Positions 1 through 44,362 are shown, counted from the first letter of the stretch. The stretch is DNA of 64,000 nucleotides from a bacterium (GCA_024638655.1 JAHEJW010000001.1:18043-82042); one strand, 5' to 3'. Translations and numbers: made by a program. The notes: generated from the letters alone by a model not told the origin.

Positions 1-1347
1 CCCAGGGAACTCACGCGTCGCATCGTCGAGCCAGACGCTCTTCACGACCTTGGCGTAGTAGTACAGGGCTATCACCGCGTTCACCGCGGCGACAACTGCC
101 AGGACGACGGTTGCTGCACCGCCGGCGATCATCACCGAGCGGAACATGACGAACTTGGCGAACCAACCAGCCAGTGGAGGTATCCCGGCCAGGCTGAAGA
201 AGAAGACTGCGACGAGGACCGCGGCGCGTGAGTCCACATTGGAGAGACCCGCCCAATCCGAGATTTCGCCGGACTTGGTCGTGCGGGCCCCGGCTATGAC
301 AACGCCGAAGGCTCCAAGATTCATCACTGCGTAGATCACCAGGTAGATGACCGTCGCCGAGAACGCCTCCTCGAGATCTGCGCCCGCCACCGCCGCGGCC
401 GCGAAAGGAACCAGCATGAATCCTGCCTGGGCAATCGAGGAATAGGCGAGAAGCCGGACGATATTGGTCTGCCGCAACGCCGAGAGATTGCCAATCGTCA
501 TCGACAAGGCTGCCAGGGCCCACAAGGCAGGGGCCCAGACATCCGAGACACCGGGAAGTGCGAGATACATGACCAGCAGCATTGCCACGAATCCGGCGGC
601 TTTCGAGTTGACCGAGAGATAGGCCGTTATAGGTGTGGGCGCGCCTTCATAGGTGTCGGGTGCCCAGAAATGGAAGGGAACGGCTGAGATCTTGAAACCG
701 AAGCCAACGATTAGGAAGAGCACAGCCATGGTGAGTGCAGGGCTGTTGGGCATTGCCGCCGTCGCCTCGGCGAGCCCGCTGAAGGTGATCTCGCCTGTCA
801 GCCCGTACAGGACCGACATGCCGTAGAGCAGGATCGCAGTCGATAGCACGCCGAGAATGAAGTACTTGAGGGAGGCCTCGTTGGATTTGACGTCTCCTTT
901 CCTCCATCCGGCCAACAGGTAGAGGGGCCCGGTGACGAGCTCGATCCCGATGAAGAGGACTATCAGGTCGCGAGCCGATGCGAGCACCAGTGATCCGAGA
1001 ACGGAGGCCAGAAGGAGGAGGTAGTACTCCCCCTGGTAGTAGCGCTCCGACTCGATGTAGTTCACCGACATCAGGAAGACGATGTAGGCAGTCACGAGGA
1101 ACAGGCCTTTGAGCACGAGGGCGAACTCGTCGACGACGTAGGAGCCGTCGAACATCGAAATGGTCTCGCCCTCGACCGCCAGGAATGCGAGAGGTATCAG
1201 CGCCAGAGCCGAGCCGGCCACCGCTGCTGTCGCAGTCCAGTACTTCTTCAGGCGGGGCAGGGTCAGATCGAGGCCGAGCACAAGGAAGAGCGAGCCGATG
1301 ATGATCAGCTCGGGCGCGATGGCCAGATAGTCGACCTCCCAGCTCAT
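1..1347 (-). CDS. nuoN: NADH-quinone oxidoreductase subunit N (partial; the C-terminal coding end runs off the left window edge)
   Basis: Not in the ORF track because its stop lies outside the window. Manual minus-strand translation from the ATG at 1345-1347 gives MSWEVDYLAIAPELIIIGSLFLVLGLDLTLPRLKKYWTAT..., a NuoN-type N-terminus in an open frame to position 1. It is the last gene of a nuo operon, 36 nt downstream of nuoM. Confidence 0.75.
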   Translation of the reverse strand, partial: MSWEVDYLAIAPELIIIGSLFLVLGLDLTLPRLKKYWTATAAVAGSALALIPLAFLAVEGETISMFDGSYVVDEFALVLKGLFLVTAYIVFLMSVNYIESERYYQGEYYLLLLASVLGSLVLASARDLIVLFIGIELVTGPLYLLAGWRKGDVKSNEASLKYFILGVLSTAILLYGMSVLYGLTGEITFSGLAEATAAMPNSPALTMAVLFLIVGFGFKISAVPFHFWAPDTYEGAPTPITAYLSVNSKAAGFVAMLLVMYLALPGVSDVWAPALWALAALSMTIGNLSALRQTNIVRLLAYSSIAQAGFMLVPFAAAAVAGADLEEAFSATVIYLVIYAVMNLGAFGVVIAGARTTKSGEISDWAGLSNVDSRAAVLVAVFFFSLAGIPPLAGWFAKFVMFRSVMIAGGAATVVLAVVAAVNAVIALYYYAKVVKSVWLDDATREFPG

Positions 1348-1382
1348 TGCCTCAAACCCGCTCTCTCGACTCCCTCAGCCAC

Positions 1383-3005
1383 TCAGCCGCCCTTCATCAG
1401 ACTGCCGAGCGCAGCCGTCACCTCGGGATCGAACGCCATGTCCACCAGGGAGGTCACGGTGTCGGTCGTAGACGTGAAGATCACCTTGGGGAAGAAGCCG
1501 ATAGCGACGATCAGGACGATGAGCGGCACCCAAGCGGCAGCTTCATACCGATCCACATCGTGGAAGGTGTGCCCTTCCCACTCGTTCGGAGGCTCACCGA
1601 GGTTGACTCGCTGCAGCATCCAGAGCATGTAGCCCGCGGTGAGCACGGTGCCGACGGCGCCCAGCACCATCGACGTCCTGAAGACTCCTAGCGACAGGCC
1701 CTCGAGAGGGTTGTAGGCGCTGACGAGAGCCATGAACTCACCCCAGAAGCCGGCCAGGCCGGGAAGTCCGAGAGAGGCCATCGCCGTGAAAGCCAGGATC
1801 CCGCCCATCACCGGCATCAGCTTGATGTTCCCGCCGAGACGAGACATCTCTCTGGTGTGATAACGGTGCGACATCGAACCGGCGAGGAAGAAGAGCAGGC
1901 CGGTGATCAGACCGTGGGCCACCATCCCGATGATCGCCGCGTTGATCCCGACGTCGGTCATGGTGGCGATCCCCAGCATCACAAAACCCATGTGACCGAC
2001 CGAGCTGAATGCGATCAGTCGCTTCATGTCGGTTTGGGCCAAACATGCCAGCGAGCCGTAGATGATCCCGATGACGGCGAGGATGGCAATGGCAGGCGCC
2101 CAGTTGACCGCCTCCTGGGGGAGGATGGGCAGGGAGATCCTGATGAAGCCGTATGAGCCGAGCTTCAGCAGGATCGCCGCCAACAAGACCGAGCCCACAG
2201 TCGGAGCGGCCGTGTGGGCATCCGGCAACCAGGTGTGGAATGGCCACATCGGGACTTTGACCGCGAAACCGAGGAACATCGCTCCGAAGACGAGGAAGGC
2301 AAAGGTGCCGGTGAACGCCCCACCCGATCCGAGTCTGGTCAACTCGACGATGTCGAATGTGCGCTCACCGAAGTTCCCGGACTCGAAGTAGAGAGCCAGA
2401 AACCCGAGGAGCATGAAGGCCGATCCGAAGAGGGTGAATAGGAAGAACTTGATGGCTGCGTACAGCCTGGTCTCGAAGAGCTTGCTGAAGCCGGGGACCT
2501 TCCTGGGAGACTTGTCACCCCATATCCCGATCATGAAGTACATGGGGAGCAGCACGACCTCGAAGAAGATGAAGAAGAGGACGAGATCGAGGGCCACGAA
2601 CGTCCCGTTCATGCCGGTGGCGAGGATCAACATCAGGATCAGGAACGCCTTCGGGTTCTTCGGCTCGTCCCAGTGATTCCATGAGTAGATCACCGCAAGT
2701 ACCACGACGAAGGTCGAGAGGACCAACAACGGAAGGGATATCCCGTCGACCCCGACGTGGTAATTGGCGTTGATGGCCCCGATCCAGCTCTCCTCGACTT
2801 CGAACTGATAGGTGTTGTAGACGCCACCGGAGTAGTCGAACTGGGCGATGAGCACGAGGGAGGCGAGGAAGGCAAGCAGTGTCGCAACCAGTCCGGTGGT
2901 CTTCAGGGCGTCTTCGTTGTCCTTGGGGATGACCCCGAGGATCAGTGCGCCAACGAGGGGCAGGAAGACGATGATCGTCAAGCCCCAGGTCTCGAACCAT
3001 TCCAT
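1383..3005 (-). CDS. nuoM: NADH-quinone oxidoreductase subunit M
   Basis: 540 aa polytopic membrane protein with NuoM/ND4 antiporter-like motifs (GLDGISLPLLVL, FFIFFEVVLLPMYF, KVPMWPFHTWLPDAH) and the expected operon position. Confidence 0.9.
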   Translation of the reverse strand: MEWFETWGLTIIVFLPLVGALILGVIPKDNEDALKTTGLVATLLAFLASLVLIAQFDYSGGVYNTYQFEVEESWIGAINANYHVGVDGISLPLLVLSTFVVVLAVIYSWNHWDEPKNPKAFLILMLILATGMNGTFVALDLVLFFIFFEVVLLPMYFMIGIWGDKSPRKVPGFSKLFETRLYAAIKFFLFTLFGSAFMLLGFLALYFESGNFGERTFDIVELTRLGSGGAFTGTFAFLVFGAMFLGFAVKVPMWPFHTWLPDAHTAAPTVGSVLLAAILLKLGSYGFIRISLPILPQEAVNWAPAIAILAVIGIIYGSLACLAQTDMKRLIAFSSVGHMGFVMLGIATMTDVGINAAIIGMVAHGLITGLLFFLAGSMSHRYHTREMSRLGGNIKLMPVMGGILAFTAMASLGLPGLAGFWGEFMALVSAYNPLEGLSLGVFRTSMVLGAVGTVLTAGYMLWMLQRVNLGEPPNEWEGHTFHDVDRYEAAAWVPLIVLIVAIGFFPKVIFTSTTDTVTSLVDMAFDPEVTAALGSLMKGG

Positions 3006-3033
3006 ATCTCTCAGCCTCTCCTATTCACTCACT

Positions 3034-5076
3034 TCAGACAATCAACACGAACACGACCACCAGAATCAGGGCTCCGGCCACGAAGCCGGCTGCGTACTGC
3101 TGAACACGACCGGTCTGCAGTCTTCGCACGGCTGAACCCGCCCCGTCTGTGACCGCCGACAGGCCGTTGAACACGCCGTCGACCGCTCGCTGGTCGATTG
3201 TCCCGTACACGAATTCACCCAGGGCCTTCACCACCCCGCCGACCAGATTGATGATCCCGTCGATGATGTAGGTGTTGGTCCAGTCGATGAATCTGGCGAT
3301 GGGCCCCGTGGTGGCACCGACCACTCCGAGTGCGGCATGGTCGATGAAGTATTTCTGACGGAGCAGCGGATACAGGGCCGGCACCTCGAAACGGTCCCGC
3401 GCCTTCTGGGTTGCCCGATCCCTCGAGAAGATCAGCCAGCCGAGTGCCAGGCCCGCACCTGCCGCGACGAGGCCGATCGCAGCCAGACTCCAGTCGATGC
3501 CTTCGGGGTGGTAGTCCCCCATCGGGACGACACGCACACCGAGCCATTCGGTGAAGTTTCCGATGCCCGGCCAATCGACCCCGGGGATGTTGAGGATGCC
3601 GACGAAGATCGAGGGGATGGCCAGGCCGACCAGGGGAGCGGTCATCACCCTTGGCGCCTCGTGAGGATGGCCTTCGCCCTTGTAAGTGCCGTGGAATGTG
3701 AGGGCTACGGCCCGGGCCATGTAGAAAGCGGTCACGAAGGCTCCGGCGATGGCGATCCACATCACTGCCGTGTAGCCCTCATGCCCCAGGGTGGCGAGGA
3801 TCTCGTCCTTCGACCAGAACCCGGCGAGGGGGATGATTCCGGCGAGCGCCAGGGAGCCCACCACGAATGTCCAATAGGTCGTGGGCATTTCCTTTCGCAG
3901 ACCCCCCATGTCACTCATGTTGTTGGAGTGCACCGCGTGAATCACGGCTCCTGCGCCAAGGAATAGGAGGGCCTTGAAGAACGCGTGGGTGAAGAGATGG
4001 AACAGGCCCGCTGTGTAGCCCCCGGCCGCGACGGCAGTCATCATGTAGCCGAGCTGGGACACCGTGGAGTAGGCCAGCACCTTCTTGATGTCATCGGCGA
4101 CCAGAGCGAGCAGACCGATGGCGAACAGCGTTATGGCGCCGATCACCACCATCAAACCTCGGGTATCCTGCGCGAGATTCTGGAAGAGCGGGAAGACCCG
4201 GGCCATCAGGTAGATACCGGCGGTGACCATGGTGGCAGCGTGCATGAGAGCGGACACGGGCGTGGGACCTGCCATGGCGTCCGGCAGCCAGATGTGCAGC
4301 GGGAACTGGGCGCTCTTGCCCATGGCCCCGAAGAAGAGAAGCAGCCCGCCCGCCACAGCCACTGCACCCAGAGCCTCGGCATGCTCGGCGGCGGCAATGC
4401 TCAGCTCGGAGAAGTCGAATGAGCCGATGGCCACTCCGACCAGAATGGTTCCCAAGATCAGCCCCACATCGGCGACCTTGTTGGTCATGAAAGCCTTGTT
4501 GCCGGCTCTCACGTTGTCGAGGTCTTCCCAATAGAAGCCGATCAGGAAATAGGAGGCGAGACCGACGCCCTCCCACCCGATGATCATTTGGATGAGGTTC
4601 GGGGCACCCACCAGGACCAGCATCGCCCCCGCAAACAGAGAGAACGCGGCGAAGAACCAGTCGACCCTGACATCGCCCTCCATGTATCCGAGTGCGTATA
4701 TGAAGACGAGCAGGCCGACAAAGTTGACCAGGAAGTACATCATGATCGACAGTCCGTCGACGACCCAGCCCAGCTCGAAGACGAGGTCGCTCCCGATGCG
4801 CGCAATCTCGAACGTGGTCTGGTCGAGGACGCCGCCCGTCATGTTCAGCACGAAGAGGACAGTGGCCCACAGGAGGTTTATGGCCAGCGCACCGACTGCC
4901 AACTCCCCGCCCTTGTACTTGAGTCTCTTGCCGAAGGCCAGGATGAGGAGAAAGGCGACAAAGGGAAGCACCAGCATGATGCCGGCCGTATCGGCCCAGA
5001 AGCCTCCGGTGCCGGCCTCAACGGCACCATGCCCGCCTTCTTCGGCAGCGATGACAAGGGCTCGCATCCCTACCAT
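3034..5076 (-). CDS. nuoL: NADH-quinone oxidoreductase subunit L
   Basis: 680 aa with NuoL/ND5 motifs ([45 protein letters not shown]). An alternative ATG at 5067 would remove a 7-nt overlap with nuoK. Confidence 0.9.
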   Translation of the reverse strand: MVGMRALVIAAEEGGHGAVEAGTGGFWADTAGIMLVLPFVAFLLILAFGKRLKYKGGELAVGALAINLLWATVLFVLNMTGGVLDQTTFEIARIGSDLVFELGWVVDGLSIMMYFLVNFVGLLVFIYALGYMEGDVRVDWFFAAFSLFAGAMLVLVGAPNLIQMIIGWEGVGLASYFLIGFYWEDLDNVRAGNKAFMTNKVADVGLILGTILVGVAIGSFDFSELSIAAAEHAEALGAVAVAGGLLLFFGAMGKSAQFPLHIWLPDAMAGPTPVSALMHAATMVTAGIYLMARVFPLFQNLAQDTRGLMVVIGAITLFAIGLLALVADDIKKVLAYSTVSQLGYMMTAVAAGGYTAGLFHLFTHAFFKALLFLGAGAVIHAVHSNNMSDMGGLRKEMPTTYWTFVVGSLALAGIIPLAGFWSKDEILATLGHEGYTAVMWIAIAGAFVTAFYMARAVALTFHGTYKGEGHPHEAPRVMTAPLVGLAIPSIFVGILNIPGVDWPGIGNFTEWLGVRVVPMGDYHPEGIDWSLAAIGLVAAGAGLALGWLIFSRDRATQKARDRFEVPALYPLLRQKYFIDHAALGVVGATTGPIARFIDWTNTYIIDGIINLVGGVVKALGEFVYGTIDQRAVDGVFNGLSAVTDGAGSAVRRLQTGRVQQYAAGFVAGALILVVVFVLIV

Positions 5077-5375
5077 CTCATCAGACTCAGGTCGTCGACG
5101 TTGGCGGACTTGCGGTTGCGGAAGATCATCAAGACGATGGCCAGGCCGATTCCCACCTCGGCAGCGGCGACTGTGATCACGAAGATGGCGAAGACCTGTC
5201 CCACGGCCTGGGCGGAGACCAGATAGGACTCGAAGGCGATCAGGTTGATGTTGACGGCGTTGAGCATCAGCTCGACGGAGAGAAGGATCAGAACCACGTT
5301 GCGTCGCACCAGGAGCCCATACACGCCGAAGGCAAACAAGGCGGCACCCAACACGAGAAACTGATTGAGCAGCAC
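5070..5375 (-). CDS. nuoK: NADH-quinone oxidoreductase subunit K
   Basis: 101 aa, three TM helices, RRN motif near residue 25 and the conserved LMLNAVNINLIAF core. GTG start. Confidence 0.9.
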   Translation of the reverse strand: MLLNQFLVLGAALFAFGVYGLLVRRNVVLILLSVELMLNAVNINLIAFESYLVSAQAVGQVFAIFVITVAAAEVGIGLAIVLMIFRNRKSANVDDLSLMRW

Positions 5376-5926
5376 TAGACGCTCATCCTTTCCTCTTCCT
5401 CTACCGGCGTGAGATCTCGACGGGCAATCGTGATACCGCCGATCAATGCAGCTAGGAGCACGAACGACACGACCTCGAACGGGATCACGAACCGTCCCAA
5501 CAGAGATTCGCCGATCACCTGAGTCGAGGTGGCTTCACCAACCGTCGCCAAGAGCTCGGTTCCGAATGCGTCGATCGAAGCCCACGTCATCACAACGAAG
5601 ACCGCAGCCGAGAGGAGGGCGGGCATGGCCGTCTGGTCGGATGAGAGCGACTCGTCCAACCCGGTTGGGGCACGGGTGATCATGATCCCGAAGAGGAACA
5701 GAACGATCACCGCACCGATATAGACCAACACGAGCACCCAGGCGACGAACTCCGCCGACATCAGGAGGAATAGCCCTGCCGTGCCGGCGAGGGCGCCGAC
5801 GAGATAGAGGGCCGCATGCACCACGTTCTTGGAGGTGACGACCCGGAATCCGGAGAACAGGACGGCGAGGCCGATGGCGGCGAAAACCCAATTGACGGGT
5901 TCGGCTATCCAATCGGAGAAGGTCAT
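5375..5926 (-). CDS. nuoJ: NADH-quinone oxidoreductase subunit J
   Basis: 183 aa membrane protein between nuoK and nuoI, with a NuoJ-like N-terminal TM helix followed by NVVHAALYL. Confidence 0.85.
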   Translation of the reverse strand: MTFSDWIAEPVNWVFAAIGLAVLFSGFRVVTSKNVVHAALYLVGALAGTAGLFLLMSAEFVAWVLVLVYIGAVIVLFLFGIMITRAPTGLDESLSSDQTAMPALLSAAVFVVMTWASIDAFGTELLATVGEATSTQVIGESLLGRFVIPFEVVSFVLLAALIGGITIARRDLTPVEEEERMSV

Positions 5927-5930
5927 CTAC

Positions 5931-6425
5931 CTACTTCTCCAATGCCGGTTGCTCGGGAACGGTGGCGAGCCAATCTTGTAGACGGTCCATGTCGTGGAGC
6001 ATCTCTCCCATGTGCGCCTCGGAGTATTCGTATTCGGGGGTCCAGAAGAGAGCATCGAAGGGGCAGACCTCCACGCAAATCCCGCAGTACATGCAAAGCG
6101 CATAATCGATGTCGAAGCGGTCGAGTTCGGCCCGAACCCTGACCCTCCCACCGGGCTTCGACGGCGGCTGTTCCTCCTTGTGCCCCTCGATGTAGATGCA
6201 CCAGTCGGGACAAGATCGGGCGCAGAGCATGCACACGGTGCAGGCCTCCTGATCGAGGGCGATGACGCCTCGTGCCCTGGGAACAGGGGTCTCTTTCACC
6301 TTTGGATAGTTGACGGTGGCCAGGTATTTGTTAGGTAAGAAGATCGTCTTGAGCATGGTGGTCAATGTGACCCACATGCCCTTCAGCATCCCGGATCCGG
6401 GGATCTTGAATCCGTTCTCGGCCAT
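5931..6425 (-). CDS. nuoI: NADH-quinone oxidoreductase subunit I (2x[4Fe-4S])
   Basis: Two CxxCxxCxxxCP motifs ([24 protein letters not shown]). Start placed at the internal ATG at 6425 ([10 protein letters not shown]...), which forms an ATGA overlap with the nuoH stop. The ORF-track start at 6488 would overlap nuoH by 64 nt. Confidence 0.85.
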
Positions 6426-7429
6426 CAGAGCACCACTTTGAGGATCGCGGTGACGGCGATGTTGGCCAGAGCCAGCGGAATGAGCCACTTCCAGGCAATT
6501 CCCTGCAGCTGGTCCTCACGGAACCTGGGGAAGGTCCACCGGAACCAGATCATCAGAAAGGCCAGGAGGAAGACCTTCCCGATCAGGATGAACGGGCCGA
6601 CGAAAGAAAGCAGATCCTCCGGGATGCCGGGGAGCCAGTAGCCCCCGAGGAAGAGGGTGGCCGCAATGGCCGACATGGAGAACATGTTGGCGAATTCGGC
6701 CAGGAAGAAGAAGAGGAATCGGAATCCCGAGTACTCGGTCAGGTATCCCATGACGAGTTCCGACTCGGCGATCGGCATGTCGAATGGAATCCGGGTCAGC
6801 TCGGCGAGTGCCGCAACCATGAAGATTGCGAAGCCGACGAACTGCACTATCACGTAGGGGAACCCGGCATTGATCTGTGCCTCGACGATGCCGCTCATGC
6901 TCATCGTCCCGGCCATGATCACCGAGCCCACCACGGCAAGCACGAGCGGCAGCTCATAGGCGATGAGCTGGCCGGCCGCCCGTAGTCCGCCGATCAGTGA
7001 GTACTTGTTGGCCGAGGACCAACCGGCCATGAGGATGCCAATGGTGCTCAGTGACGAAATCGCCAGCGCGTAGAAGATGCCCACCGACAGATCTCTGAAG
7101 ATCAGACCAGGCCCAAACGGGATCACCACGAACAGTGCCACCGTTCCCACGAGGACCAGGATCGGGGCTGACTTGAAGACCGGCTTGTCGGCCGCGTCGG
7201 GGACGATGTCTTCCTTCTGGAAGAACTTCACACCATCGGCGATCAATTGGGCCCAGCCCCAGCGGCCCCCAGCGAAGTAAGGACCCACCCGGGCTTGCAT
7301 CTTGGCCGAGAGCTTCATCTCGGCGAATCCGATCACCATGCCGATGAGGGGGATCATCGTCGCCACCAGCAGCAGCTTGCCGGCCAACGACACCCAGAAA
7401 TTGTCGAAGAGGTCGATCAGGAATTCCAT
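6425..7429 (-). CDS. nuoH: NADH-quinone oxidoreductase subunit H
   Basis: NuoH/ND1 motifs ([35 protein letters not shown]). Start at ATG 7429 (MEFLIDLF...) is preceded by AAGGAA. The upstream ORF extension is Arg-rich and non-homologous. Confidence 0.9.
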
Positions 7430-7601
7430 TGGAGTTCCTTCTCTTTCATGATGGCGGCCGACTTCGCCCGAGTGGCTCCGTTCAACACAGGCGATGGCGT
7501 TGCCGGGGACGCAACATCGTCTGACTCCTCGCGCGGTGCGGCTCCGGGCGAACAGACGCCGGTCGTCCGCAACTCGCCGCAAGTGTCAGTTCGGGGACCG
7601 C

Positions 7602-8792
7602 TCATCTGTCCACATCCCCGAGCACGAAATCGAGTGAGCCCATGATGGCGATGATGTCCGGCACCAATGCCCCTTCGAGGATCCAGGGAAGGATCGAGAT
7701 GTTGGAGAAGCTCGCCGAGCGGATCTTCAAGCGGTAGGGCCCTTGTCCCCCATCCGACACCAGGTAGTAGCCCATCTCTCCTTTCGGATTCTCGGCCCTC
7801 ACGTAGGTCTCACCCTTCGGAACCTTGATGACCTTGGGCACTTTCGCCTGCAGATCGCCCGAGGGGATTCCATCGACCGCCTGCTGAATTATCTTCGCCG
7901 ACTCGCGAATCTCTTGGAGCCTCACCCACCACCTGTCCCAGCAGTCGCCGTTCTCACCCGTGACGACATCGAATTCGAACAGGTGATAGGGGAGATAGTC
8001 CTCCGCCTTGCGAAGGTCGAATGCCACACCAGATGCCCGAAGGTTCGGCCCGGAGACGCCAAAGGCGGCGGCCACCTCGGGGGGGAGAACTCCGACATCT
8101 TTGGTCCGGGCCAGGATGATCTCGTTGCCGGCCACCAGAGCCTCCAACTCATCGGTGACATCGAGCACTTGATCCATCGCTTCTCGGGTTTCGCTCAGGA
8201 ACCCAGCCGGGAGATCTTGGATCATCTTCCTCGTGGCGGAGCCGGATCCGTAGGCGGGTTTCACTCCTCCGATCCGATTGAAGTTGGGATGAAAGCGACC
8301 CCCGGTGACCCCTTCGAGCAAGTCGAGAACTCGTTCTCTCTCCCTCAGCGCGAAGAACAGTGGCGTGGCGGCGCCGAGTTCGAGTGGATAAGACGCCATG
8401 AAGATGAGGTGTGAGGAGATACGGGCCATCTCGGTCAGGATCAGCCGGATGTACTGGGCGCGCTCTGGCACATCGAGCCCCATCAGCTTTTCGGCCGCCA
8501 CGATGAAGGGGATCTCATTGGCGTATCCCGAGACCCAGTCGATTCGGTTGACGATTGCCGTTATCTGGGGATATGTCCTGACCTCGGAGAGCTTCTCGTA
8601 GCCGCGATGCATGTATCCGATGACCGGCTGAACGTTGTAAGCCCGCTCCCCGTCCACCCGGGCGACCAGCCGCAAGACGCCGTGTGTCGAGGGATGCTGT
8701 GGACCGATGTTCAGCGTCATGTCCTCGGTCTCGAGCTCGACCGAGACCTGCGCCTCGCTCAGGTGCCTTATTGCGTCGGTGTCGATGGTCAT
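7602..8792 (-). CDS. nuoD: NADH-quinone oxidoreductase subunit D
   Basis: NuoD 49-kDa subunit motifs (NIGPQHPSTHGVLRLV, C-terminal SLDFVLGDVDR). Start at ATG 8792 (MTIDTD...) with GGAGG upstream, 7 nt after the nuoC stop. Confidence 0.9.
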   Translation of the reverse strand: MTIDTDAIRHLSEAQVSVELETEDMTLNIGPQHPSTHGVLRLVARVDGERAYNVQPVIGYMHRGYEKLSEVRTYPQITAIVNRIDWVSGYANEIPFIVAAEKLMGLDVPERAQYIRLILTEMARISSHLIFMASYPLELGAATPLFFALRERERVLDLLEGVTGGRFHPNFNRIGGVKPAYGSGSATRKMIQDLPAGFLSETREAMDQVLDVTDELEALVAGNEIILARTKDVGVLPPEVAAAFGVSGPNLRASGVAFDLRKAEDYLPYHLFEFDVVTGENGDCWDRWWVRLQEIRESAKIIQQAVDGIPSGDLQAKVPKVIKVPKGETYVRAENPKGEMGYYLVSDGGQGPYRLKIRSASFSNISILPWILEGALVPDIIAIMGSLDFVLGDVDR

Positions 8793-8799
8793 GAAAGCC

Positions 8800-9345: not shown

Positions 9346-9385
9346 GTCGGCGAAATCCTGGAGGGGGTGGGAGGTCGTCGCGGTC

Positions 9386-34531: not shown

Positions 34532-34535
34532 TCCT

Positions 34536-36014: not shown

Positions 36015-36016
36015 AA

Positions 36017-37093
36017 CTAACCCCAGGGAGCCCCGAATTGCCTGAACCCCATGCTGATCGTCGAGACGATCAGCCAAACCACCGCCGCCGGGATCAGACC
36101 CTTCCAGCCGAGAGTCATCAGCTGGTCATAGCGGAGTCTCGGCAGCGTCGCCCGGAGCCAGAAGAAGATGAACACGATGGCGTAGGTCTTCAGCAGAAAC
36201 CAGACCGTCGGGAGGATCGCCGATATGAAGGCGGGTACGGAATCCTCGAATGTCGGACCACTCCAGCCCCCGAGGAAGAGTGTTGCGGCGATTGCCGACA
36301 TCGAGAAGATGTTGATGTATTCGGCGAGGAAGAACATGGCGAACCTCATGCCGGAGTACTCGGTGTGAAACCCGCCGACCAGCTCTTGTTCCGCCTCTAC
36401 GAGATCGAATGGAGCTCGGTTTGTCTCGGCGATGATGGCAAGGAGGAAGATGACAAACGCCGCAACCTGTGGGAAGAGATTCCAGCGCGGTATGAAGCCC
36501 GCCCATGTCCCATTCTGTCGCTCGACGATCTCGACCAACGAGAGTGTCCCGCCGTCACCCTGGGTCGCCGAGTAAACGACAACTGCGACCATGGCGAGGC
36601 CCATGGCAGCTTCGTATGAGATCGCCTGGGCGGTGGCCCTCACCCCGCCGAGCAACGGGTACTTCGAGCCCGAGGACCACCCGGCGAGAACCACGGCGTA
36701 CACCGCCATCGACGACATCGCCAGGACGAAGAGGAGGCCGATATTCAGGTCGGCTCCGACCAACGCCACCTCGTTCCCGCCGATGGTGAAGGGCCGGCCG
36801 AAGGGGACCATCATGAAGATCAAGAACGCCGGGATCACCGCAAGGAACGGGGCCAGCATGTACATCCCCAGCTCCACCTTGCGCGGTGTGATCGACTCTT
36901 TGAAGAAAAGCTTCAACCCGTCGGCAACTGTCTGCAGGATCCCAAACGGGCCAGCTCGATTTGGCCCGATCCGCGCCTGCATGTCGGCCAGGATCTTGCG
37001 CTCGGCCCATATGTTCACGATGGTGGCCACGAGTAGAAGGCCGAAAACCATGAGGGCCCTCAAGAAGACGATGCCAAACTCAGCGAGGCTCAT
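36017..37093 (-). CDS. nuoH: NADH-quinone oxidoreductase subunit H (second operon)
   Basis: RIGPNRAGPFGILQTVADGLKLF, YEAAMGLAMVAVV. 358 aa. Confidence 0.9.
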   Translation of the reverse strand: MSLAEFGIVFLRALMVFGLLLVATIVNIWAERKILADMQARIGPNRAGPFGILQTVADGLKLFFKESITPRKVELGMYMLAPFLAVIPAFLIFMMVPFGRPFTIGGNEVALVGADLNIGLLFVLAMSSMAVYAVVLAGWSSGSKYPLLGGVRATAQAISYEAAMGLAMVAVVVYSATQGDGGTLSLVEIVERQNGTWAGFIPRWNLFPQVAAFVIFLLAIIAETNRAPFDLVEAEQELVGGFHTEYSGMRFAMFFLAEYINIFSMSAIAATLFLGGWSGPTFEDSVPAFISAILPTVWFLLKTYAIVFIFFWLRATLPRLRYDQLMTLGWKGLIPAAVVWLIVSTISMGFRQFGAPWG

Positions 37094-39528
37094 GCGTCCG
37101 CCACCTCCGCCTCAACCGCAGAATCGATTCCGAGTGCTGTCGCCCCTGGCTGGTTGAACGGGACGTAGACCGTGCCTGCCGGCGTGCCCTCGTCCACGAC
37201 CATTTCGAATCGGCCCTCACCGGAGACCGTGACGAGTCGGAGTGAGTCGCCCGGGACCGCGTCAAGGGCAGTGGCATCCAGGGGGTTCACGAGCACTACC
37301 GGGCCCAACGCCAGCCTGCTCAGGGAAGGTGAGTGACGCAGGCGGACCCCGTCGTCGTACATGGTGCGAGCCACGTGAAGTGAGAGACCGTTCTCTCTCT
37401 TCCCATCGGTGGCAACCGCCACCGGGATATGGGCAAGCTGGCTCTCGCCCTCGAGAGGGACGACAACACCGTCCCGGGCCTCCCATTCGAGTAGGTCCCA
37501 GGAAACCCCGACGTAGGCCGGGGCGACCGTGCTGATCTCCTTTGAGATCGCCTCGGCTGAGCTCAACCCGAGTGGCGCCCCGATCCGATGGGCCAGGTCG
37601 TCGAGCATCGCCCAGTCGGGGCGTGTCTGTCCCGGGCCGGGCCGTATGTTGTTCAACTTCTGGACCCGCCCCTCGACGTTGGTGACAGTGCCTTCTTTCT
37701 CCGTGAAGGTCTCCGCGGGCAGGATCACCTCGGCATGCCGAGTCGAATCCGTGATGAATAGGTCGATCGCGACCACCCACTCTGCGGCCTCCAGTGCCTC
37801 CTCCGCCAAGGCGGGAATCGGGAAGTCCCGCACCGGGTCTGCACCAACCAGCAGCAGACCACGGATCTCCCCGGAGATCAGGCCCTCGAGAATCCCGGCG
37901 GTGTCCCGACCGGGAACGGAGGGGACTTCCCCCCAATGATCGCGCAGACGACCGACCCCCTCCTGGCTCACTCCAACTCGACCGGGAAGGAGATCGGGAG
38001 CCAAGCCCATGTCGAGGGCGCCGTAGGTGTTTGCCCTGGAGTTGAGCGGCAGCAGGTCGGAGCGACCGCGACGGGCCCGGACCAAAGCCGCCACCGCTTC
38101 GGCCACGTGTGGCCCGTCAGCATGGCTGGCGATTCCGATCAGAGCCACGACGTTGTCGGCATCGAGCGCCTCGATCACGTCGGGATAGCGACCGTCATCC
38201 AAGGCCTGAACAAGGTCGAAACCCTCACCGGGGCGATAGGTGAGCTTGCGGAAGGCCACATCGTCGAGCCCTGTCGCCCGGGGATGGACGACAACCAGCT
38301 CGGCGCCAAGCTCCTGTGCCGCTCGTCGCACCCTCAAGTACAGGGTGGGATGCTCTTCCTTCAGGTCAGGGCCCCAAACCAGAATCGTGTCGGCGTCGTC
38401 GAGCTGTCCGATGGTTGCGCGATCGACTGTGCCGGCCAGGAAATGCGATGAGAGGGAGTCGCCGAGACGACAGTCGACGTTGTTGGTTCCGAGAGCCACC
38501 CTGGCGAATTTGGACAACGCATACGCATCCTCGTTGGTGCCGTGAGCGCCTCCGATCACCGCTAGCGCGTCTCCCCCGCTCTCGTCCCTGATCAATCCGA
38601 GACGATCGGCTGCCACGTCGATGGCCTCCGCCCAATCGGTTGCTTCGTACACGCCTTTGCGTCTGACCAGGGGAGCGCCGAGACGATCTTCCGAGTGGAT
38701 GTACTCGAAGCCGAACCTCGCCTTGTCCGAGAGCCAGCCATGGTTGGTGGCGTCGTTGTCAACACCGGTGTATCGAACGATCTCGTTCTGACTGGCATGC
38801 ACCTCGATCCTCGGATGGGCAGTGTCGAACAGAGAGGAACTCACCACCTTTAGGAGATCCCAGGGGCGCGCCCTGAAGCGATACGGGCCGGCGGTCAGAG
38901 CACCGACCGGGCACAGCTGCACCGTGTTTCCAGAGAAGTAGGAAGCGAATGGATGATCGGGAAAGGTGTTCACCTGAGTCTTGTTTCCCCGGTCGAAGAA
39001 CTCGATCAGGGGATCACCGGAGATCTCCCTCGAGAACCTGGTGCACCGGTCGCACAGAATGCAACGCTCCCGGTCGAGGAGAACGAGGTCGGATATCGGG
39101 ATGGGCTTCTCGTAGTTCCGCTTTATCTCCACGAACCGGCTCTCACCGGGGCCGTGCGACAAGGCCTGGTCCTGCAACGGGCACTCACCGCCCTTGTCAC
39201 AGACCGGGCAATCGAGTGGGTGATTTGCCAGGAGAAACTCGAGGACCGCCTCCTGAGCCTTCTTGGTGACGTCGCTCTGAGTGGCGACGACCATCCCGTC
39301 GGAGACTGGGTTCATGCAAGCCGGGATCAGAGCCGGCCCGCGCCCGGTGTCGACTTCGACGATGCAGACACGACACATGCCTACCGGCGTCATCCTGGGG
39401 TGCCAGCAAAAACGAGGGATGTAGGTCCCGCTGTCCTCGGCGGCGGTGATGAGCATCTCGCCACTGAGCACCTGGTGTTCCCGACCGTCGATGGTGATCG
39501 TGACGAACTCGGGTTGCCCGGAGGTCAT
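37090..39528 (-). CDS. nuoG: NADH-quinone oxidoreductase subunit G (75-kDa Fe-S subunit)
   Basis: N-terminal 2Fe-2S and 4Fe-4S cysteine motifs (CWHPRMTPVGMCRVC, HPLDCPVCDKGGECPLQD, CILCDRC), followed by a molybdopterin-oxidoreductase-like domain. 812 aa. Confidence 0.9.
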   Translation of the reverse strand: MTSGQPEFVTITIDGREHQVLSGEMLITAAEDSGTYIPRFCWHPRMTPVGMCRVCIVEVDTGRGPALIPACMNPVSDGMVVATQSDVTKKAQEAVLEFLLANHPLDCPVCDKGGECPLQDQALSHGPGESRFVEIKRNYEKPIPISDLVLLDRERCILCDRCTRFSREISGDPLIEFFDRGNKTQVNTFPDHPFASYFSGNTVQLCPVGALTAGPYRFRARPWDLLKVVSSSLFDTAHPRIEVHASQNEIVRYTGVDNDATNHGWLSDKARFGFEYIHSEDRLGAPLVRRKGVYEATDWAEAIDVAADRLGLIRDESGGDALAVIGGAHGTNEDAYALSKFARVALGTNNVDCRLGDSLSSHFLAGTVDRATIGQLDDADTILVWGPDLKEEHPTLYLRVRRAAQELGAELVVVHPRATGLDDVAFRKLTYRPGEGFDLVQALDDGRYPDVIEALDADNVVALIGIASHADGPHVAEAVAALVRARRGRSDLLPLNSRANTYGALDMGLAPDLLPGRVGVSQEGVGRLRDHWGEVPSVPGRDTAGILEGLISGEIRGLLLVGADPVRDFPIPALAEEALEAAEWVVAIDLFITDSTRHAEVILPAETFTEKEGTVTNVEGRVQKLNNIRPGPGQTRPDWAMLDDLAHRIGAPLGLSSAEAISKEISTVAPAYVGVSWDLLEWEARDGVVVPLEGESQLAHIPVAVATDGKRENGLSLHVARTMYDDGVRLRHSPSLSRLALGPVVLVNPLDATALDAVPGDSLRLVTVSGEGRFEMVVDEGTPAGTVYVPFNQPGATALGIDSAVEAEVADA

Positions 39529-40943
39529 GACGACCCTTCTCCAGCGGACTCCCTATCGCTGGGAATGCTCCCTGTCGATCCTCCTCGGACTTCTGGACCC
39601 GCTCCAGCGAGCGAGCTGGGTGCCCGGGCCCTCGTCTCCCCGGACTTCAGTTCGAATGGACACCCACCCAGGTCGACGTGCCTCTGCACCTCGTCCCGGA
39701 AGTAGTCACGAAGCGCGATGATCGGCGACACTGCCGAAGGGCCCAATGGGCAGATGGTGGTCATCTTCGGAGGCCACTGGAGACCGACGCTGATCCCGTC
39801 GGACACATCGATGAGCAGATCGAGGTCAACGGGCCGGCCCGCGCCCTCATCGATGCGTCGGAGGATCATCTCCATCCAGGTGGTCCCCTCACGACAGGGG
39901 GTGCATTGACCACAAGACTCGTGCGAGAAGAACCTGACGATGCGCTCCGCCGCGCGCACCATGCAAGTGTCTTCGTCCATCACCACGACGGCCCCGGATC
40001 CGAGCATCGATCCCGCCAAAGCGCACGCCTCCTTGGCGACGATCAGATCCAGATGCTCATCGGGCACGAACCAAGGTGCCGAGGCCCCCCCGGGAATCCA
40101 CGCCTTGAGTTCCTTGTCATCGCGGATTCCGCCTCCGATGTCGTAGATGAGCTCCCGCCAGCTGAGAGTGTGTGGCAGCTCGTAGTTGCCCGGGCGCTTG
40201 ACATGACCCGAAAGCGAGATCATGTAGGTGCCGGTGTCCAGGGCGATCACCAGATCGCGGTAGGCCTCACCGCCCATCTCCAGGATGTGAGGGATATTCG
40301 ACATCGTCTCGACGTTGTTGACGATGGTGGGCTTCATATAGAGGCCTTTGGCGGCCGGGAAGTAGGGCGGCTTCAGCCTCGGCTCGCCACGCTCACCCTC
40401 GAGGGAATTGATCAGGGCTGTCTCCTCACCGCAGATGTAGGCGCCTGCGCCGAGATGCACCACGATGTCGAGGTCGTAGTCCGAGCCGAAGATCCCCCTG
40501 CCGAGATAGCCGTTTTGGTACGCCTCTTCGATCGCCCTCTGGGTCCTCCGCGCCGGCTTGGGGTATTCCCCGCGGATGTAGATGAAAGCGAGATGAGCCT
40601 CGTTGGCGATGGCCGTGATGATCATCCCCTCGATCATCTGATGAGGGTCCCGCTCGAGGAGCTGACGGTCCTTGAAGGTCCCGGGCTCCGACTCATCGGC
40701 ATTGACGACCAGGTATGCCGGGCGCTCAGGCGCCAGGAAACCCCACTTGACACCTGCCGGGAAGGCGGCTCCTCCACGGCCGAGGAGCTCGGAGGTCTTC
40801 ACTTCTCCGACCAGCTCGTCCCGGGTCATGCCGAGCGCGCGTTTGGCCTGCTCATACCCGCCGGTCGCCTCGTATCTGGCGATGGTGTGCGAATCGGACG
40901 GATACTCGGTCATTCTCTTGGTGACGACAAGGGGGGTGCTCAT
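39525..40943 (-). CDS. nuoF: NADH-quinone oxidoreductase subunit F (NADH- and FMN-binding)
   Basis: GRGGAAFPAG.KW FMN/NADH-site motif and the C-terminal ESCGQCTPCREG [4Fe-4S] motif. 472 aa. Confidence 0.9.
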   Translation of the reverse strand: MSTPLVVTKRMTEYPSDSHTIARYEATGGYEQAKRALGMTRDELVGEVKTSELLGRGGAAFPAGVKWGFLAPERPAYLVVNADESEPGTFKDRQLLERDPHQMIEGMIITAIANEAHLAFIYIRGEYPKPARRTQRAIEEAYQNGYLGRGIFGSDYDLDIVVHLGAGAYICGEETALINSLEGERGEPRLKPPYFPAAKGLYMKPTIVNNVETMSNIPHILEMGGEAYRDLVIALDTGTYMISLSGHVKRPGNYELPHTLSWRELIYDIGGGIRDDKELKAWIPGGASAPWFVPDEHLDLIVAKEACALAGSMLGSGAVVVMDEDTCMVRAAERIVRFFSHESCGQCTPCREGTTWMEMILRRIDEGAGRPVDLDLLIDVSDGISVGLQWPPKMTTICPLGPSAVSPIIALRDYFRDEVQRHVDLGGCPFELKSGETRARAPSSLAGAGPEVRGGSTGSIPSDRESAGEGSS

Positions 40944-41563
40944 TCGCCCCCCTCGCTCTCGACCGTTCCGAGCGGCTGAAATGCCGGAAACGGTCCGATG
41001 GCGCCGTCGGTCTCGGGGATTGCCCAGTCGAAACTGCGCCGTCCTCCGAAGAGCTCCTGCATCTCATCTGTGTTGACGACGACCGGCCGAGCCTTCTTCA
41101 GCCACGTGACCAGATCGCGCGCTTTGTCCGGTGTCACGCCTTCGATCAGCTCATAGTTGACCTGCACGGCCGGCGCTCCACCGCAAGCGCCGATGCACTC
41201 GGCATGCTCGACCGACAGGAGCCCTTCTTCGTCGGTCTCACCGTGGGGCACGCCCGATTCGTCCTCGACGGCGTGCATCACTTCATCTCCACCAAGCAGC
41301 ATGCAGGAGATGGATGTGCAGCAGGAGATCAGATACTTGCCGGTCCGCTCCCTCTTGTACATCGTGTAGAAGCTCGCCACGGAGAGCACCTGCGCCGGGG
41401 TGATCTCACACCACCGGGCGACCTCCTCCATCCCGGTCTCGGTCAGGTGCCCTTCCTCGGCCATGGCCAGGTAGAGGAGCGGCATGACTGCCGATCGCTT
41501 CTGCGGGTAAAGGTCGATGATTTCGCGGGCACGCTCCTGGGTGCTCTCCGACCAGTGGCTCAT
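40940..41563 (-). CDS. nuoE: NADH-quinone oxidoreductase subunit E (24-kDa, 2Fe-2S)
   Basis: Thioredoxin-like 2Fe-2S subunit with CCTSISC....CIGACGGAP cysteines. 207 aa. Confidence 0.9.
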   Translation of the reverse strand: MSHWSESTQERAREIIDLYPQKRSAVMPLLYLAMAEEGHLTETGMEEVARWCEITPAQVLSVASFYTMYKRERTGKYLISCCTSISCMLLGGDEVMHAVEDESGVPHGETDEEGLLSVEHAECIGACGGAPAVQVNYELIEGVTPDKARDLVTWLKKARPVVVNTDEMQELFGGRRSFDWAIPETDGAIGPFPAFQPLGTVESEGGE

Positions 41564-41642
41564 CGGAGTGGGAGAATAGGGAGCAGGGAATACACGGGCG
41601 AAACCAGCGGAGAGGCTTCATTTCGCTGCAAAAAGCGCCCTC

Positions 41643-43010
41643 TCACCGATCTACGTCGCCCATCACCGGGTCCATGGACGCGATGGTCGCCACCGTGTCC
41701 GCAACAAGGCTATCTGCCATGGCGATTGGCAGACCCTGGAGGTTGTAGAAAGAAGGGGCCCGGGTGTGCATGCGCCACGGCATCGGCCCACCGTCTGCCA
41801 CCAGGTAGCAGCCGAGTTCGCCGCGTGGGGACTCCACCGCCACATAGGTCTCGCCGGCCGGCACCTTGAAACCTTCGGTGAATAGCTTGAAGTGGTGAAT
41901 CAGCGCCTCCATCGATTCGTCGATGCGAGCTCTGGGTGGGGGTGTGATCTTGCGGTCATCGATCCTGTAGTTGCCTTTGGGCATGGAGTCCATCACCTGC
42001 TCGACGATCTTCAGTGACTCTTCGATCTCTTCGACCTTGACCCGATAGCGGTCATACACGTCACCCCGCTCGCCAAGCGGCACGTCGAACTCGTACTGAT
42101 CGATACCCGAGTAGGGAAAAACCTTCCTGATGTCCCAGTCCACGCCGCTAGCCCTTAGTGGGGGGCCGGTGATGCTGTAGGCGATGGCTTCCTCGGCCTG
42201 GATTATGCCTACGTCCCGGGTTCGAGAAAGCCAGACCGGGTTCTCTTTGAGCAGATCGTCGTACTCCTGAAGACGGACTGGCATCTCCTTGAGAATCGCC
42301 GCGACGTCGTCCTTCCATCCGGGAGGAAGATCAGCGGCCACGCCACCCGGGCGGATGTAATTGTGGTTCATTCGGAGCCCGGTGGCCTTCTCGAAGAACG
42401 CGAGGATGGCCTCCCTCTCCCGAAAACCGTAGATCATCATCGAGAGGGCGCCGATGTCCAGACCGTTGGTTGCCAGAGCGACCAGATGGGAGGAGATCCG
42501 GTTGAGCTCGGTCATCAGGATCCTGATCGCGGCGGCGCGCGGTGGGACCTCGACGCCGAGGAGCCGCTCCACGGCAAGTGAATAGGCGAGCTCTTCGTGG
42601 AGTGGAGAGAGGTAGTCCATCCGCGTCACGTTCGTGGGCCCCTGGGCGTAATTGAGCTGCTCGGCGGTCTTCTCCATTCCGGTATGGAGATACCCGATGA
42701 TCGGCCGAGTTCGCCTGATGATCTCCCCCTCGAGCTCGATCTGCAGACGAAGAACCCCGTGGGTGGATGGGTGCTGGGGACCCATGTTCACGATCATGCG
42801 CTCATCGTCGTCAGCGTCCTCGTCGAACACGTAGTCATCTTCGACCACTCGACCGAACTGGGCGGCCAGCCGGTCCTCAGACTCGTGTTCGGAGATCTCC
42901 TGGCGGCCCTCGTCCGTGGGTTGGAACTGAGGCTCCTCGGTGCCTGCCACCCACAAGTCGAAGGTGTCGGTCTCTCCGCCGGCCTGGTCTTGTGTGTTCT
43001 CGTCGCTCAT
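41643..43010 (-). CDS. nuoD: NADH-quinone oxidoreductase subunit D (second operon) with an acidic N-terminal extension
   Basis: NMGPQHPSTHGVLRL ... SMDPVMGDVDR. Start at ATG 43010 (MSDENTQDQ...), 2 nt after the nuoC stop. About 70 acidic residues precede the conserved core. Confidence 0.9.
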   Translation of the reverse strand: MSDENTQDQAGGETDTFDLWVAGTEEPQFQPTDEGRQEISEHESEDRLAAQFGRVVEDDYVFDEDADDDERMIVNMGPQHPSTHGVLRLQIELEGEIIRRTRPIIGYLHTGMEKTAEQLNYAQGPTNVTRMDYLSPLHEELAYSLAVERLLGVEVPPRAAAIRILMTELNRISSHLVALATNGLDIGALSMMIYGFREREAILAFFEKATGLRMNHNYIRPGGVAADLPPGWKDDVAAILKEMPVRLQEYDDLLKENPVWLSRTRDVGIIQAEEAIAYSITGPPLRASGVDWDIRKVFPYSGIDQYEFDVPLGERGDVYDRYRVKVEEIEESLKIVEQVMDSMPKGNYRIDDRKITPPPRARIDESMEALIHHFKLFTEGFKVPAGETYVAVESPRGELGCYLVADGGPMPWRMHTRAPSFYNLQGLPIAMADSLVADTVATIASMDPVMGDVDR

Positions 43011-43012
43011 CG

Positions 43013-43486
43013 TCAGCTCACCTGATGGGCCTGCTTGAACTGGACCGGAACCGACCCCACCCCGAAGTCCTTCCGAAGCGGGTGACCTTCCCAATCGTCG
43101 GGCATCAGGATGCGCGTCAGGTCGGGGTGCCCTTCGAACTCGATGCCAAACATGTCGTACACCTCGCGCTCGGCAAAGTTGGCCCCCGGCCAGAGCGGCG
43201 TGAGCGATGCGATCGTGGGATCCTCTCGCCCCACCGAGGTGATCATGCGTAGCCGGATTCTGTGTTGCATCGACACGAGATTGGCAACGACCTCGAATCG
43301 CTCAGGCCTCAGACGCATCCAGTCGACCGCGGTGACGTCACCACATATCTCGAACCCCGCCTCCTTGGCGGCTCCGGCGAAGGAGAACCAGGCATCGGCG
43401 GGAACCCGCGCCACATCCTGGCCGTGAGAGTCCTCCCAGACAACGGCTTCGAACTGTTCCTTGAGATCCTCGAGCACCGGGCTCAT
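43013..43486 (-). CDS. nuoC: NADH-quinone oxidoreductase subunit C (second operon)
   Basis: [32 protein letters not shown]. Start at ATG 43486, forming an ATGA overlap with the nuoB stop. The track ORF from 43846 runs through nuoB in another frame and is rejected. Confidence 0.85.
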
Positions 43487-43950
43487 CTGACTATCTCGCG
43501 TGTCATTATCTTGTCGTGCAGGGTGAGGATCCCGTGCATGAGGCTCTGCGGGCCGGGAGGGCAGCCAGGCACATAGATGTCGACCGGAACGATCTGGTCG
43601 ACCCCCTGGACCAGGGCGTAGTTGTTGAACATGCCACCGGTCGAAGCACATGCACCCATCGAGATGACCCATTTTGGATCGGGCATTTGGTCGTAGACCT
43701 GGCGCAAAACCGGGGCCATCTTCTGACTGACGCGACCCGCCACGATCATGAGGTCGGCCTGGCGGGGGGAGGCGCGGAAGACCTCCATCCCAAAACGCGC
43801 AAGGTCGTAGTGGGCAGCTCCGGTGGCCATCATTTCGATGGCACAACAGGCCAGACCGAACGTGGCCGGGAACATCGAACGGGTCCGCGCCCAGTTGGCG
43901 GCACGCTCGACCGTGGTCATCAGCAGATTACCTGGGGGAGTCGTCGCCAT
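43483..43950 (-). CDS. nuoB: NADH-quinone oxidoreductase subunit B (second operon)
   Basis: [16 protein letters not shown] and PGCPP N2-cluster cysteine motifs. 155 aa. Confidence 0.9.
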
Positions 43951-43954
43951 CTCT

Positions 43955-44362
43955 TCAGGCGGCCCGGCGCGTCTCGGGTGCGAGATAGCGGGAACGTCGC
44001 TTCACATTCCAGTCGAGGGCGCCCCGCTTCCACACGTAAACCAGCGTCTCCAGGACGAAGAAGGTGAAGATGAGCACAGCTGCCACGCCGTACCAGCCCA
44101 GCTCGGTCCAGATGGAGCCCCAAGCGAACAGGAAGATGATCTCGACGTCGAAGATCACGAACAACATCGCCACCAGGTAGAACTTCACCGGGAATCTCTG
44201 AACGGGCTCGACCTCAGGAACGATGCCGCACTCATACGGGTCGAGCTTCTCCGGGGTCGGGCGGTTCGGCCGGAAGAAGCGGGAAGCCAGCAGCGATACT
44301 GCCACGAAACCCGCAGCCAGTACCAACATGATGCCGATCGGCAGGTAGTCGGCGAGAGTCAC
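43955..44362 (-). CDS. nuoA: NADH-quinone oxidoreductase subunit A (second operon)
   Basis: 135 aa, three TM helices, YECG motif. First gene of the 14-gene operon. Confidence 0.85.

Follow-up and report, generated by a model that had tools for sequence, protein, structure and literature searches.

Two sets of nuo genes, which encode the subunits of respiratory complex I, lie on the minus strand of a 64,000-nt stretch of DNA from an uncultured Acidimicrobiia bacterium (GCA_024638655.1 JAHEJW010000001.1:18043-82042, referred to as the window). Operon 1 (1-10239) is arranged as nuoABCDHIJKLMN, while operon 2 (29655-44362) holds the full series nuoA-N. Judging from the sequences, operon 1 probably encodes a complex I-like enzyme of 11 subunits that has no NADH-dehydrogenase module (N-module, NuoEFG), is fed by an electron carrier, reduces menaquinone and pumps protons, beside the canonical NADH-dependent complex I. 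What the sequences show is which genes are present, that the cofactor-binding and pump residues are intact, that the operon is conserved, and that it stands phylogenetically apart from operon 2. Together these data support a place for operon 1 in the 11-subunit, N-module-less class of complex I-like enzymes (NUO11), as a member that is intact and conserved and diverged in ancient times. Acidimicrobiia, which are abundant in soils and waters, nearly always keep the second enzyme beside the canonical one.

Genes were called by listing and translating open reading frames (ORFs), families were assigned using the curated cut-offs of NCBIfam, and the operons were compared with each other by BLASTP. 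Subunits A to M of operon 1 gave NCBIfam matches with E-values of 1e-25 to 1e-181. The first gene, nuoA1 (9874-10239; NuoA, PRK07756, E 1.7e-40; 41% identity to NuoA2), is followed by nuoB1 (9386-9883; 243.9 bits against a NuoB cut-off of 116), whose product carries the Fe-S cluster N2. Next come nuoC1 (8800-9468), which has an uncertain start codon and an acidic, Pro-rich C-terminal tail and matches the NuoC family below the curated cut-offs (E 3e-25), and nuoD1 (7602-8792), which is of a short type. NuoD1 passes the NuoD model PRK06075.1 (416.9 bits, cut-off 360); its best-scoring model, PRK12322, reached 454 bits, below its cut-off of 522. The remaining genes are nuoH1 (6425-7429; 319 bits, cut-off 305; 42% identity to NuoH2), nuoI1 for a protein with two 4Fe-4S clusters (5931-6425; NuoI family, E 9e-25, below the curated cut-offs), nuoJ1 (5375-5926; E 4e-29), nuoK1 (5070-5375; 105 bits, cut-off 57), nuoL1 (3034-5076, start uncertain; 603.7 bits, cut-off 556) and nuoM1 (1383-3005; NDH_I_M, 557.9 bits, cut-off 263.8). 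An open frame starting with MSWEVDYL represents nuoN1 (1-1347), of which 449 amino acids are visible before the window edge cuts off the C-terminus; it is 32% identical to NuoN2 (E 1e-53), and its counterpart is complete in related loci. Most genes overlap or lie a few bases apart, the exceptions being the L/M and M/N junctions (about 30 nt) and the D/H junction (172 nt, 7430-7601).

Operon 2 is a canonical 14-subunit complex I operon with all genes in order, including those for NuoE, NuoF and NuoG. NCBIfam models identified nuoA2 (43955-44362), nuoB2 (43483-43950), nuoC2 (43013-43486), nuoD2 (41643-43010; 548 bits, cut-off 459), nuoE2 (40940-41563), nuoF2 (39525-40943; PRK13596, 427.5 bits, cut-off 389), nuoG2 (37090-39528; TIGR01973, 518 bits, cut-off 470), nuoH2 (36017-37093), nuoI2 (about 35355-35984) and nuoN2 (29655-31115). 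BLASTP against operon 1 identified nuoJ2 (34838-35392), nuoK2 (34536-34841), nuoL2 (32645-34531) and nuoM2 (31112-32644). NuoF, NuoG, NuoD, NuoB, NuoH and NuoI of operon 2 each exceeded at least one curated NCBIfam cut-off. An acidic stretch of about 70 residues extends the NuoD of this operon at its N-terminus. A tblastn search of the whole window matched NuoE, NuoF and NuoG at the operon 2 copies and nowhere else. A preliminary description of this DNA had reported an 11-gene operon lacking nuoEFG alongside a complete 14-gene operon, with nuoH following nuoD directly after about 170 nt and the N2 cysteines of NuoB retained. ORFs, family matches, BLASTP and a motif check agree with this account, the one correction being that the window edge cuts nuoN of operon 1 short.

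The operon 1 genes contain neither frameshifts nor internal stops. Motif checks located all N2 ligands in NuoB1 (CC, C and C, including PGCPP), two CxxCxxCxxxCP motifs in NuoI1 corresponding to the ligands of N6a and N6b, both membrane Glu residues in NuoK1, the Glu of transmembrane helix (TM) 5 and the Lys motifs of TM7, TM8 and TM12 in NuoL1, and the key Glu and Lys motifs in NuoM1 and NuoN1. NuoB1 has an additional Cys beside the third N2 ligand (GSCANCGG versus GACASTGG in NuoB2). In NuoD1, the motif GPQHPSTHG is present, the protein ends in DFVLGDVDR, and there are no CxxC pairs of the NiFe type. The gene content is thus that which defines NUO11: contiguous nuoA, B, C, D and H-N without E, F and G, NuoA and NuoJ both present, and a NuoD without NiFe Cys pairs.

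Across the subunits, the two operons are 30-57% identical (32-57% for NuoB, NuoC, NuoD and NuoI), so the two sets are ancient paralogues and not the outcome of a recent duplication with deletion. Relatives of NuoD1 turned up in at least 533 genomes when one genome per species was scanned, and conservation was assessed on the best 80 loci, taken with 10-kb flanks. These 80 genomes are all recorded as metagenome-assembled genomes (MAGs), most of them labelled Acidimicrobiia or Actinomycetota and some Acidobacteriota or 'uncultured bacterium'. All 80 loci share the gene order A-B-C-D-H-I-J-K-L-M-N with intact genes, nuoH right behind nuoD and no E, F or G. Operon 1 proteins are 51-95% identical across these species-level loci, with NuoC1 as the least conserved subunit (51-73%), and the closest relatives of NuoD1 (83-95%) are proteins of named Acidimicrobiia MAGs. 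Neither the window nor the 10 kb on either side in the 80 related genomes held a remnant or relocated nuoEFG set dedicated to operon 1, and a recent paralogue with a simple nuoEFG deletion, the other outcome that the preliminary description had named as decisive, is at odds with the identities, the conserved order and the intact residues.

The comparison of NuoD proteins likewise separates the two operons. Among solved structures, the NuoD of operon 2 matches Thermus thermophilus Nqo4 (457 bits) and Mycobacterium smegmatis NuoD (451 bits) best, and NuoD1 scores highest with T. thermophilus (364 bits) and next with cyanobacterial NdhH (329 bits), M. smegmatis reaching only 267 bits. In phmmer alignments with Nqo4 and NdhH, NuoD1 shows a 13-aa insertion and lacks a segment of about 22 aa present in canonical NuoD; because of the missing segment it aligns end to end only with MBS and MBH homologues. 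The NuoD1 clade is isolated among 1.84 billion cluster representatives, one of which reaches 70% identity and the rest at most 50%. In a neighbour-joining tree, which is crude in having no support values and names for only a few 50%-identity cluster representatives, the clade groups with the short NuoD proteins P0125, P0232 and P0247. P0247/P0286 is encoded by an orphan gene that lies among ftsH, fol and pan genes in an actinobacterium, and its homologues are the 'NuoD' proteins from Streptomyces, Kitasatospora, Actinoallomurus and Nocardioides (hereafter actinomycete NuoD2). With actinomycete NuoD2, NuoD1 shares 48% identity, and with the NuoD2 of operon 2 it shares 40%. Outside the group formed by these two, its nearest relatives are P0127 (49%) and P0126 (48%), both Tyr-bearing at the position discussed below and both encoded in operons without EFG. 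By this placement, which covers NuoD only and uses the crude tree together with the identities, NuoD1 stands closer to NuoD proteins from other operons without EFG, and to actinomycete NuoD2, than to its counterpart in operon 2. Operon 1 is, on these comparisons, an old paralogous lineage common to Actinomycetota and related to Streptomyces nuoA2/B2/D2/H2-N2. In locus L082 of an actinobacterial genome (GCA_044224695.1) the NuoD2-type gene (10001-11182) stands alone with no nuo gene nearby, between bPH_2-domain genes on one side and a DUF3180-folK-folB-folP-folE-ftsH block on the other, and it also stands alone in L083.

A further feature of NuoD1 concerns the quinone site. A Trp of NuoD1 (NRIDWVSGY) aligns with Tyr87 of T. 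thermophilus Nqo4 and with the corresponding Tyr of NdhH; Tyr87 forms a hydrogen bond to the head group of the quinone (PMC4758237). In T. thermophilus numbering, His38 and Asp401 are kept and three further positions are substituted (T135S, D139E and F146L). The pair His38/Tyr87 is a trait of quinone-reducing complex I in general and stands outside the gene-content definition of NUO11; NuoD1 has the His and lacks the Tyr. Trp occupies this position in all of the 120 closest NuoD1 homologues and in 119 of 119 actinomycete NuoD2 proteins (RHDWLS; P0290-P0408; Streptomyces, Kitasatospora, Actinoallomurus, Nocardioides), and it is also found in NuoCD of Methanofastidiosia and Methanonatronarchaeales. 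Tyr is present in 95 of 150 cluster representatives, including the nearest EFG-less relatives. The papers searched contained no mention of this Trp or of a natural Tyr-to-Trp variant ('Y144W'); the survey by Degli Esposti (PMC4758237) omits Actinobacteria. The N-module-less lineage is ancient, under strong constraint and marked by Trp at a quinone-binding Tyr position.

In the mechanism that we propose, the exposed clusters of NuoI would receive electrons from a soluble carrier of low potential, with reduced ferredoxin as the most probable candidate. The electrons would move on to cluster N2 in NuoB and from there to menaquinone in the modified pocket of NuoD and NuoH, and the redox reaction would drive proton translocation through NuoL, NuoM and NuoN. 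Ferredoxin appears the most likely carrier because of the analogy with NDH-1 and with the model for the Desulfitobacterium enzyme described below. The action without NuoEFG, the donor, the acceptor and proton pumping are all steps that we infer, and the choice between ferredoxin, F420H2 and a shared NuoEFG is beyond what sequence alone decides. A second complex I-like enzyme with another donor was also what the preliminary description had envisaged, with Fpo- and NDH-1-type complexes as models. The identities and the NuoD placement bear out the first part, an intact member of an ancient 11-subunit class. The assignment to the Fpo or NDH-1 type fell away, since all Fpo models and the NdhH and NdhI models scored below their NCBIfam cut-offs.

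Several points weigh against the proposed enzyme. Genes for NuoEFG are present in the same genome, in operon 2, and NuoC1 and NuoI1 score below the curated cut-offs of their families. The quinone-ligating Tyr87 is replaced by Trp, accompanied by T135S, D139E and F146L. Reduction of long-chain quinones suffers severely when the equivalent Tyr is mutated in Yarrowia or E. coli, so that with Trp at this position the usual chemistry of a quinone reductase cannot be taken for granted.

Because operon 2 provides NuoEFG, a hybrid enzyme is conceivable in which the operon 1 core, or some of its subunits, associates with the operon 2 N-module to form another NADH-dependent isoenzyme, one that differs in its membrane or quinone-site properties. 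Such sharing would suit the proximity of the two operons, which lie on the same strand, 19 kb apart in the window and separated by about 4.5-6 kb in the related loci L001 and L008. Mixing of subunits is also suggested by Streptomyces, whose second set lacks nuoC and nuoEFG and has its nuoD2 elsewhere, and the authors of that work proposed differential incorporation of L2 and M2 (PMC3765725). However, NUO11 enzymes are known from organisms without any nuoEFG (PMC3144371, PMC11238625), NuoB, NuoC, NuoD and NuoI share only 32-57% identity between the two operons, and NuoD1 is of the short type, with the segment of about 22 aa missing and the 13-aa insertion in place. We regard a shared N-module as unlikely.

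A different departure from the proposed enzyme concerns its acceptor. The Trp suggests altered acceptor chemistry and is not evidence for a new function. Taken further, the whole actinobacterial N-module-less lineage, that is the Acidimicrobiia operon and the actinomycete NuoD2 set, might have a re-tuned pocket and not be a standard menaquinone reductase, using another lipophilic or protein acceptor or running mainly in reverse; we consider this quite unlikely. In the reverse mode, electrons from menaquinol would be driven by the proton-motive force onto a carrier of low potential, for example ferredoxin or F420, in aerobic actinobacteria. The Trp offers a testable handle on this question, through a W-to-Y swap and acceptor specificity in the enzyme of a culturable actinobacterium such as Streptomyces.

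Decidedly improbable is an Fpo-type F420H2 dehydrogenase, in which an FpoF/FrhB-like subunit encoded elsewhere would dock on the 11-subunit core and feed it from reduced F420. F420 was proposed as donor for the homologous Actinomarinales enzyme and the coenzyme is widespread in Actinobacteria (PMC7771536), and the FpoD, FpoH and FpoK models match the operon 1 proteins end to end. Every Fpo model nevertheless stays far under its cut-off (FpoD 342 versus 600, FpoH 266 versus 475, FpoL 361 versus 1050, FpoK 103 versus 145), which rules out Fpo membership. Moreover, FpoF has been found in Euryarchaeota only (Moparthi and Hagerhall, PMC3144371), and neither an FpoF-like input gene nor another redox protein linked to operon 1 emerged in the window or the flanks of the 80 loci from a clustering of conserved neighbours, which was not a search with hidden Markov models. 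That operon 1 is a decaying, non-functional remnant of a duplicated 14-gene operon after deletion of nuoEFG is hardly conceivable, for its sole support, a 172-nt gap exactly where nuoEFG would sit, is an inserted repeat in a junction at which nuoD and nuoH abut or overlap in about 21 species, and against it stand reading frames without frameshifts or internal stops, catalytic residues that are all kept, order and sequences conserved across at least 80 species and the 30-57% identity to operon 2. The conservation data refute this reading, and recent duplication with deletion and a pseudogene were both rejected.

As for that gap, most of the nuoD1-nuoH1 spacer is filled by a 117-nt copy of a dispersed, hairpin-forming intergenic repeat on the minus strand (7454-7570). 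Its core, CGACCGGCGTCTGTTCGCCC, lies at 7546-7565 (chance expectation 0.03). Members of the family are about 115-140 nt long and consist of a 5' arm (GCGGACGAC-CGGCGTCTG-TTCGCCC), a variable middle and a complementary 3' arm (GGGCGAA-GTCGGCCGC). A 17-nt core of the repeat occurs in 19 of the 80 genome loci, at various junctions of nuo operons and in both orientations, and a 22-nt core in more than 120 metagenome contigs from soil and sediment. About 15% of the sampled metagenome copies sit in spacers of 11- or 14-gene nuo operons (K-L, D-H, M-N, L-M, I-J and after N); the rest lie outside nuo spacers, sometimes as tandem arrays. Examples are found in L008 (988-1004 and 12781-12797), L068 (11223-11239), L146 (2590-2611 and 8724-8745) and L202 (three tandem copies). 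An alignment of 28 copies yields a closing stem of 16 bp (9+7) with an invariant 9-nt bulge (CGGCGTCTG) and compensatory changes in six pairs. This family alignment alone backs the structure, as a fold of the spacer by itself gives a stability no better than that of shuffled sequence (z = 0). Scanning the window against Rfam gave no match, and the repeat has no Rfam family. The distance between nuoD and nuoH in relatives ranges from -13 (overlap) to 475 nt, with about 21 species having no spacer. Inspection of the gap for remnants of nuoEFG, as the preliminary description had advised, found none by tblastn; the blank search, the repeat copy inside and the species without a spacer rule out the spacer as a nuoEFG remnant. 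Judged by its family, the spacer element is an inserted, dispersed repeat resembling repetitive extragenic palindromic (REP) sequences or miniature inverted-repeat transposable elements (MITEs).

The pair of operons is not a new kind of system. Two nuo clusters, one of them without EFG, have been reported in Candidatus (Ca.) Actinomarinales of the class Acidimicrobiia, with an Fe3+ ABC transporter (afuABC) and a heliorhodopsin gene between them (PMC7771536; bioRxiv 10.1101/2021.02.01.429150), and F420 was suggested as donor for the 11-gene set (PMC7771536). Since this pairing is already published, the finding and reading of the preliminary description repeat work on a sister lineage. The likeness is one of gene layout: a 14-gene and an 11-gene cluster on one chromosome stretch with an Fe(III) ABC transporter between them. 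In contrast to Ca. Actinomarinales, a heliorhodopsin gene was not detected between the operons of the window, which are instead separated by a GlgE block (11543-22270), and the G+C content of the genome is about 62% versus about 33% in the streamlined Ca. Actinomarinales. What the present analysis adds is the replacement of Tyr87 by Trp and a dispersed repeat that is often found in nuo spacers.

The 11-gene nuo class as a whole occurs in many phyla including Actinobacteria, with no universal partner protein identified and the donor unresolved (PMC3144371, PMC11238625, PMC4758237). Moparthi and Hagerhall name no designated partner for NUO11 enzymes (PMC3144371), and ferredoxin was proposed as donor of the 11-subunit enzyme of Desulfitobacterium (PMC11238625). 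Operon 1 shares with this class the gene set nuoABCDHIJKLMN without nuoEFG, NuoA and NuoJ, the N2 and NuoI clusters and the absence of a linked partner gene. It differs in coexisting with a full 14-gene operon, and from its nearest EFG-less relatives outside Actinomycetota, which keep Tyr87, in the Trp of NuoD1. The second nuo set of Streptomyces (nuoA2, B2, D2, H2-N2) has no nuoC2, and its nuoD2 is non-contiguous and encoded elsewhere (PMC3765725). As far as NuoD, the one subunit compared, is concerned, it resembles operon 1 in having the same Trp, in the 48% identity and in the grouping in the neighbour-joining tree, and both sets lack the N-module. Unlike the Streptomyces set, operon 1 has nuoC and nuoD inside the operon, and NuoD1 has the extra 13-aa insertion.

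Cyanobacterial and plastid NDH-1, a ferredoxin:plastoquinone oxidoreductase (PDB 6hum and others), shares 11 homologous core subunits and the absence of NuoEFG with operon 1, and its NdhH comes second among the solved structures that match NuoD1. However, NdhH keeps the Tyr and the NDH-1 genes are split into several clusters. Extra subunits of NDH-1 are involved in ferredoxin binding (PMC4758237). Membership of operon 1 in NDH-1 was ruled out by the NdhH and NdhI models (351 versus a cut-off of 583 and 55 versus 302). Archaeal Fpo and Fpo-like complexes have a short-type NuoD homologue and an 11-subunit core like operon 1; the Methanosarcina-type Fpo keeps Tyr87 (PMC4758237).

Immediately upstream of nuoA1 and about 100 nt away lies a divergent gene of the phosphodiesterase/alkaline phosphatase/nucleotide pyrophosphatase family (10300-11439, plus strand; Pfam PF01663, E 3.8e-15), an arrangement found in 57 of 57 related loci. 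It is a strictly conserved neighbour with no obvious respiratory link, and we do not assign it to the enzyme. Beyond it, related loci often have genes for an Fe(III)-type ABC transporter along with moaA and a DUF402 gene, and downstream of nuoN1 related genomes have convergent genes for GNAT (acetyltransferase-like) proteins. The transporter, conserved upstream of nuoA1 in about 30 loci, is found between the operons of the window as genes for a binding protein, a double permease and an ATPase (22948-26578, plus strand; Pfam SBP_bac_6/11, BPD_transp_1 and ABC_tran with TOBE_2). The glycogen/GlgE-pathway block at 11543-22270, also between the operons, comprises a phosphorylase-like gene, a TreS-Mak fusion, GlgE, a GH57 enzyme and GlgB. 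It is not among the conserved neighbours of the relatives and therefore looks like a lineage-specific insertion. The operons are 19 kb apart in the window, about 5.9 kb in L001 and about 4.5 kb in L008, and in 11 loci the tail of a 14-gene operon lies upstream of nuoA1 on the same strand inside the 10-kb flank.

On the other side of operon 2, and 3 kb from it, lies a gene for a Rex-type redox-sensing repressor (47642-48283, plus strand). The Rex operator TTGTGAA-N6-TTCACAA was found upstream of neither nuo operon, the lone match in the window being a chance-level one with three mismatches in the glgE region. Farther on, a bc-type complex cluster (48710-54234, minus strand) encodes a 577-aa c-type cytochrome protein in which two heme-c stretches were matched, as well as a Rieske protein and a cytochrome b split in two (258 and 339 aa). 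It is preceded by genes for a 149-aa ferredoxin-like protein with two [4Fe-4S] clusters and a 210-aa protein without a Pfam match, and such a combination of subunits is not usual in the Qcr complex of actinobacteria. The adjoining heme-copper oxidase cluster (54396-57644, plus strand) holds in a row ORFs for a weakly COX1-like protein (69 bits), a FixO-like protein (35 bits) and a cytochrome c, which suggests a divergent C-family (cbb3-like) oxidase or a relative of nitric oxide reductase.

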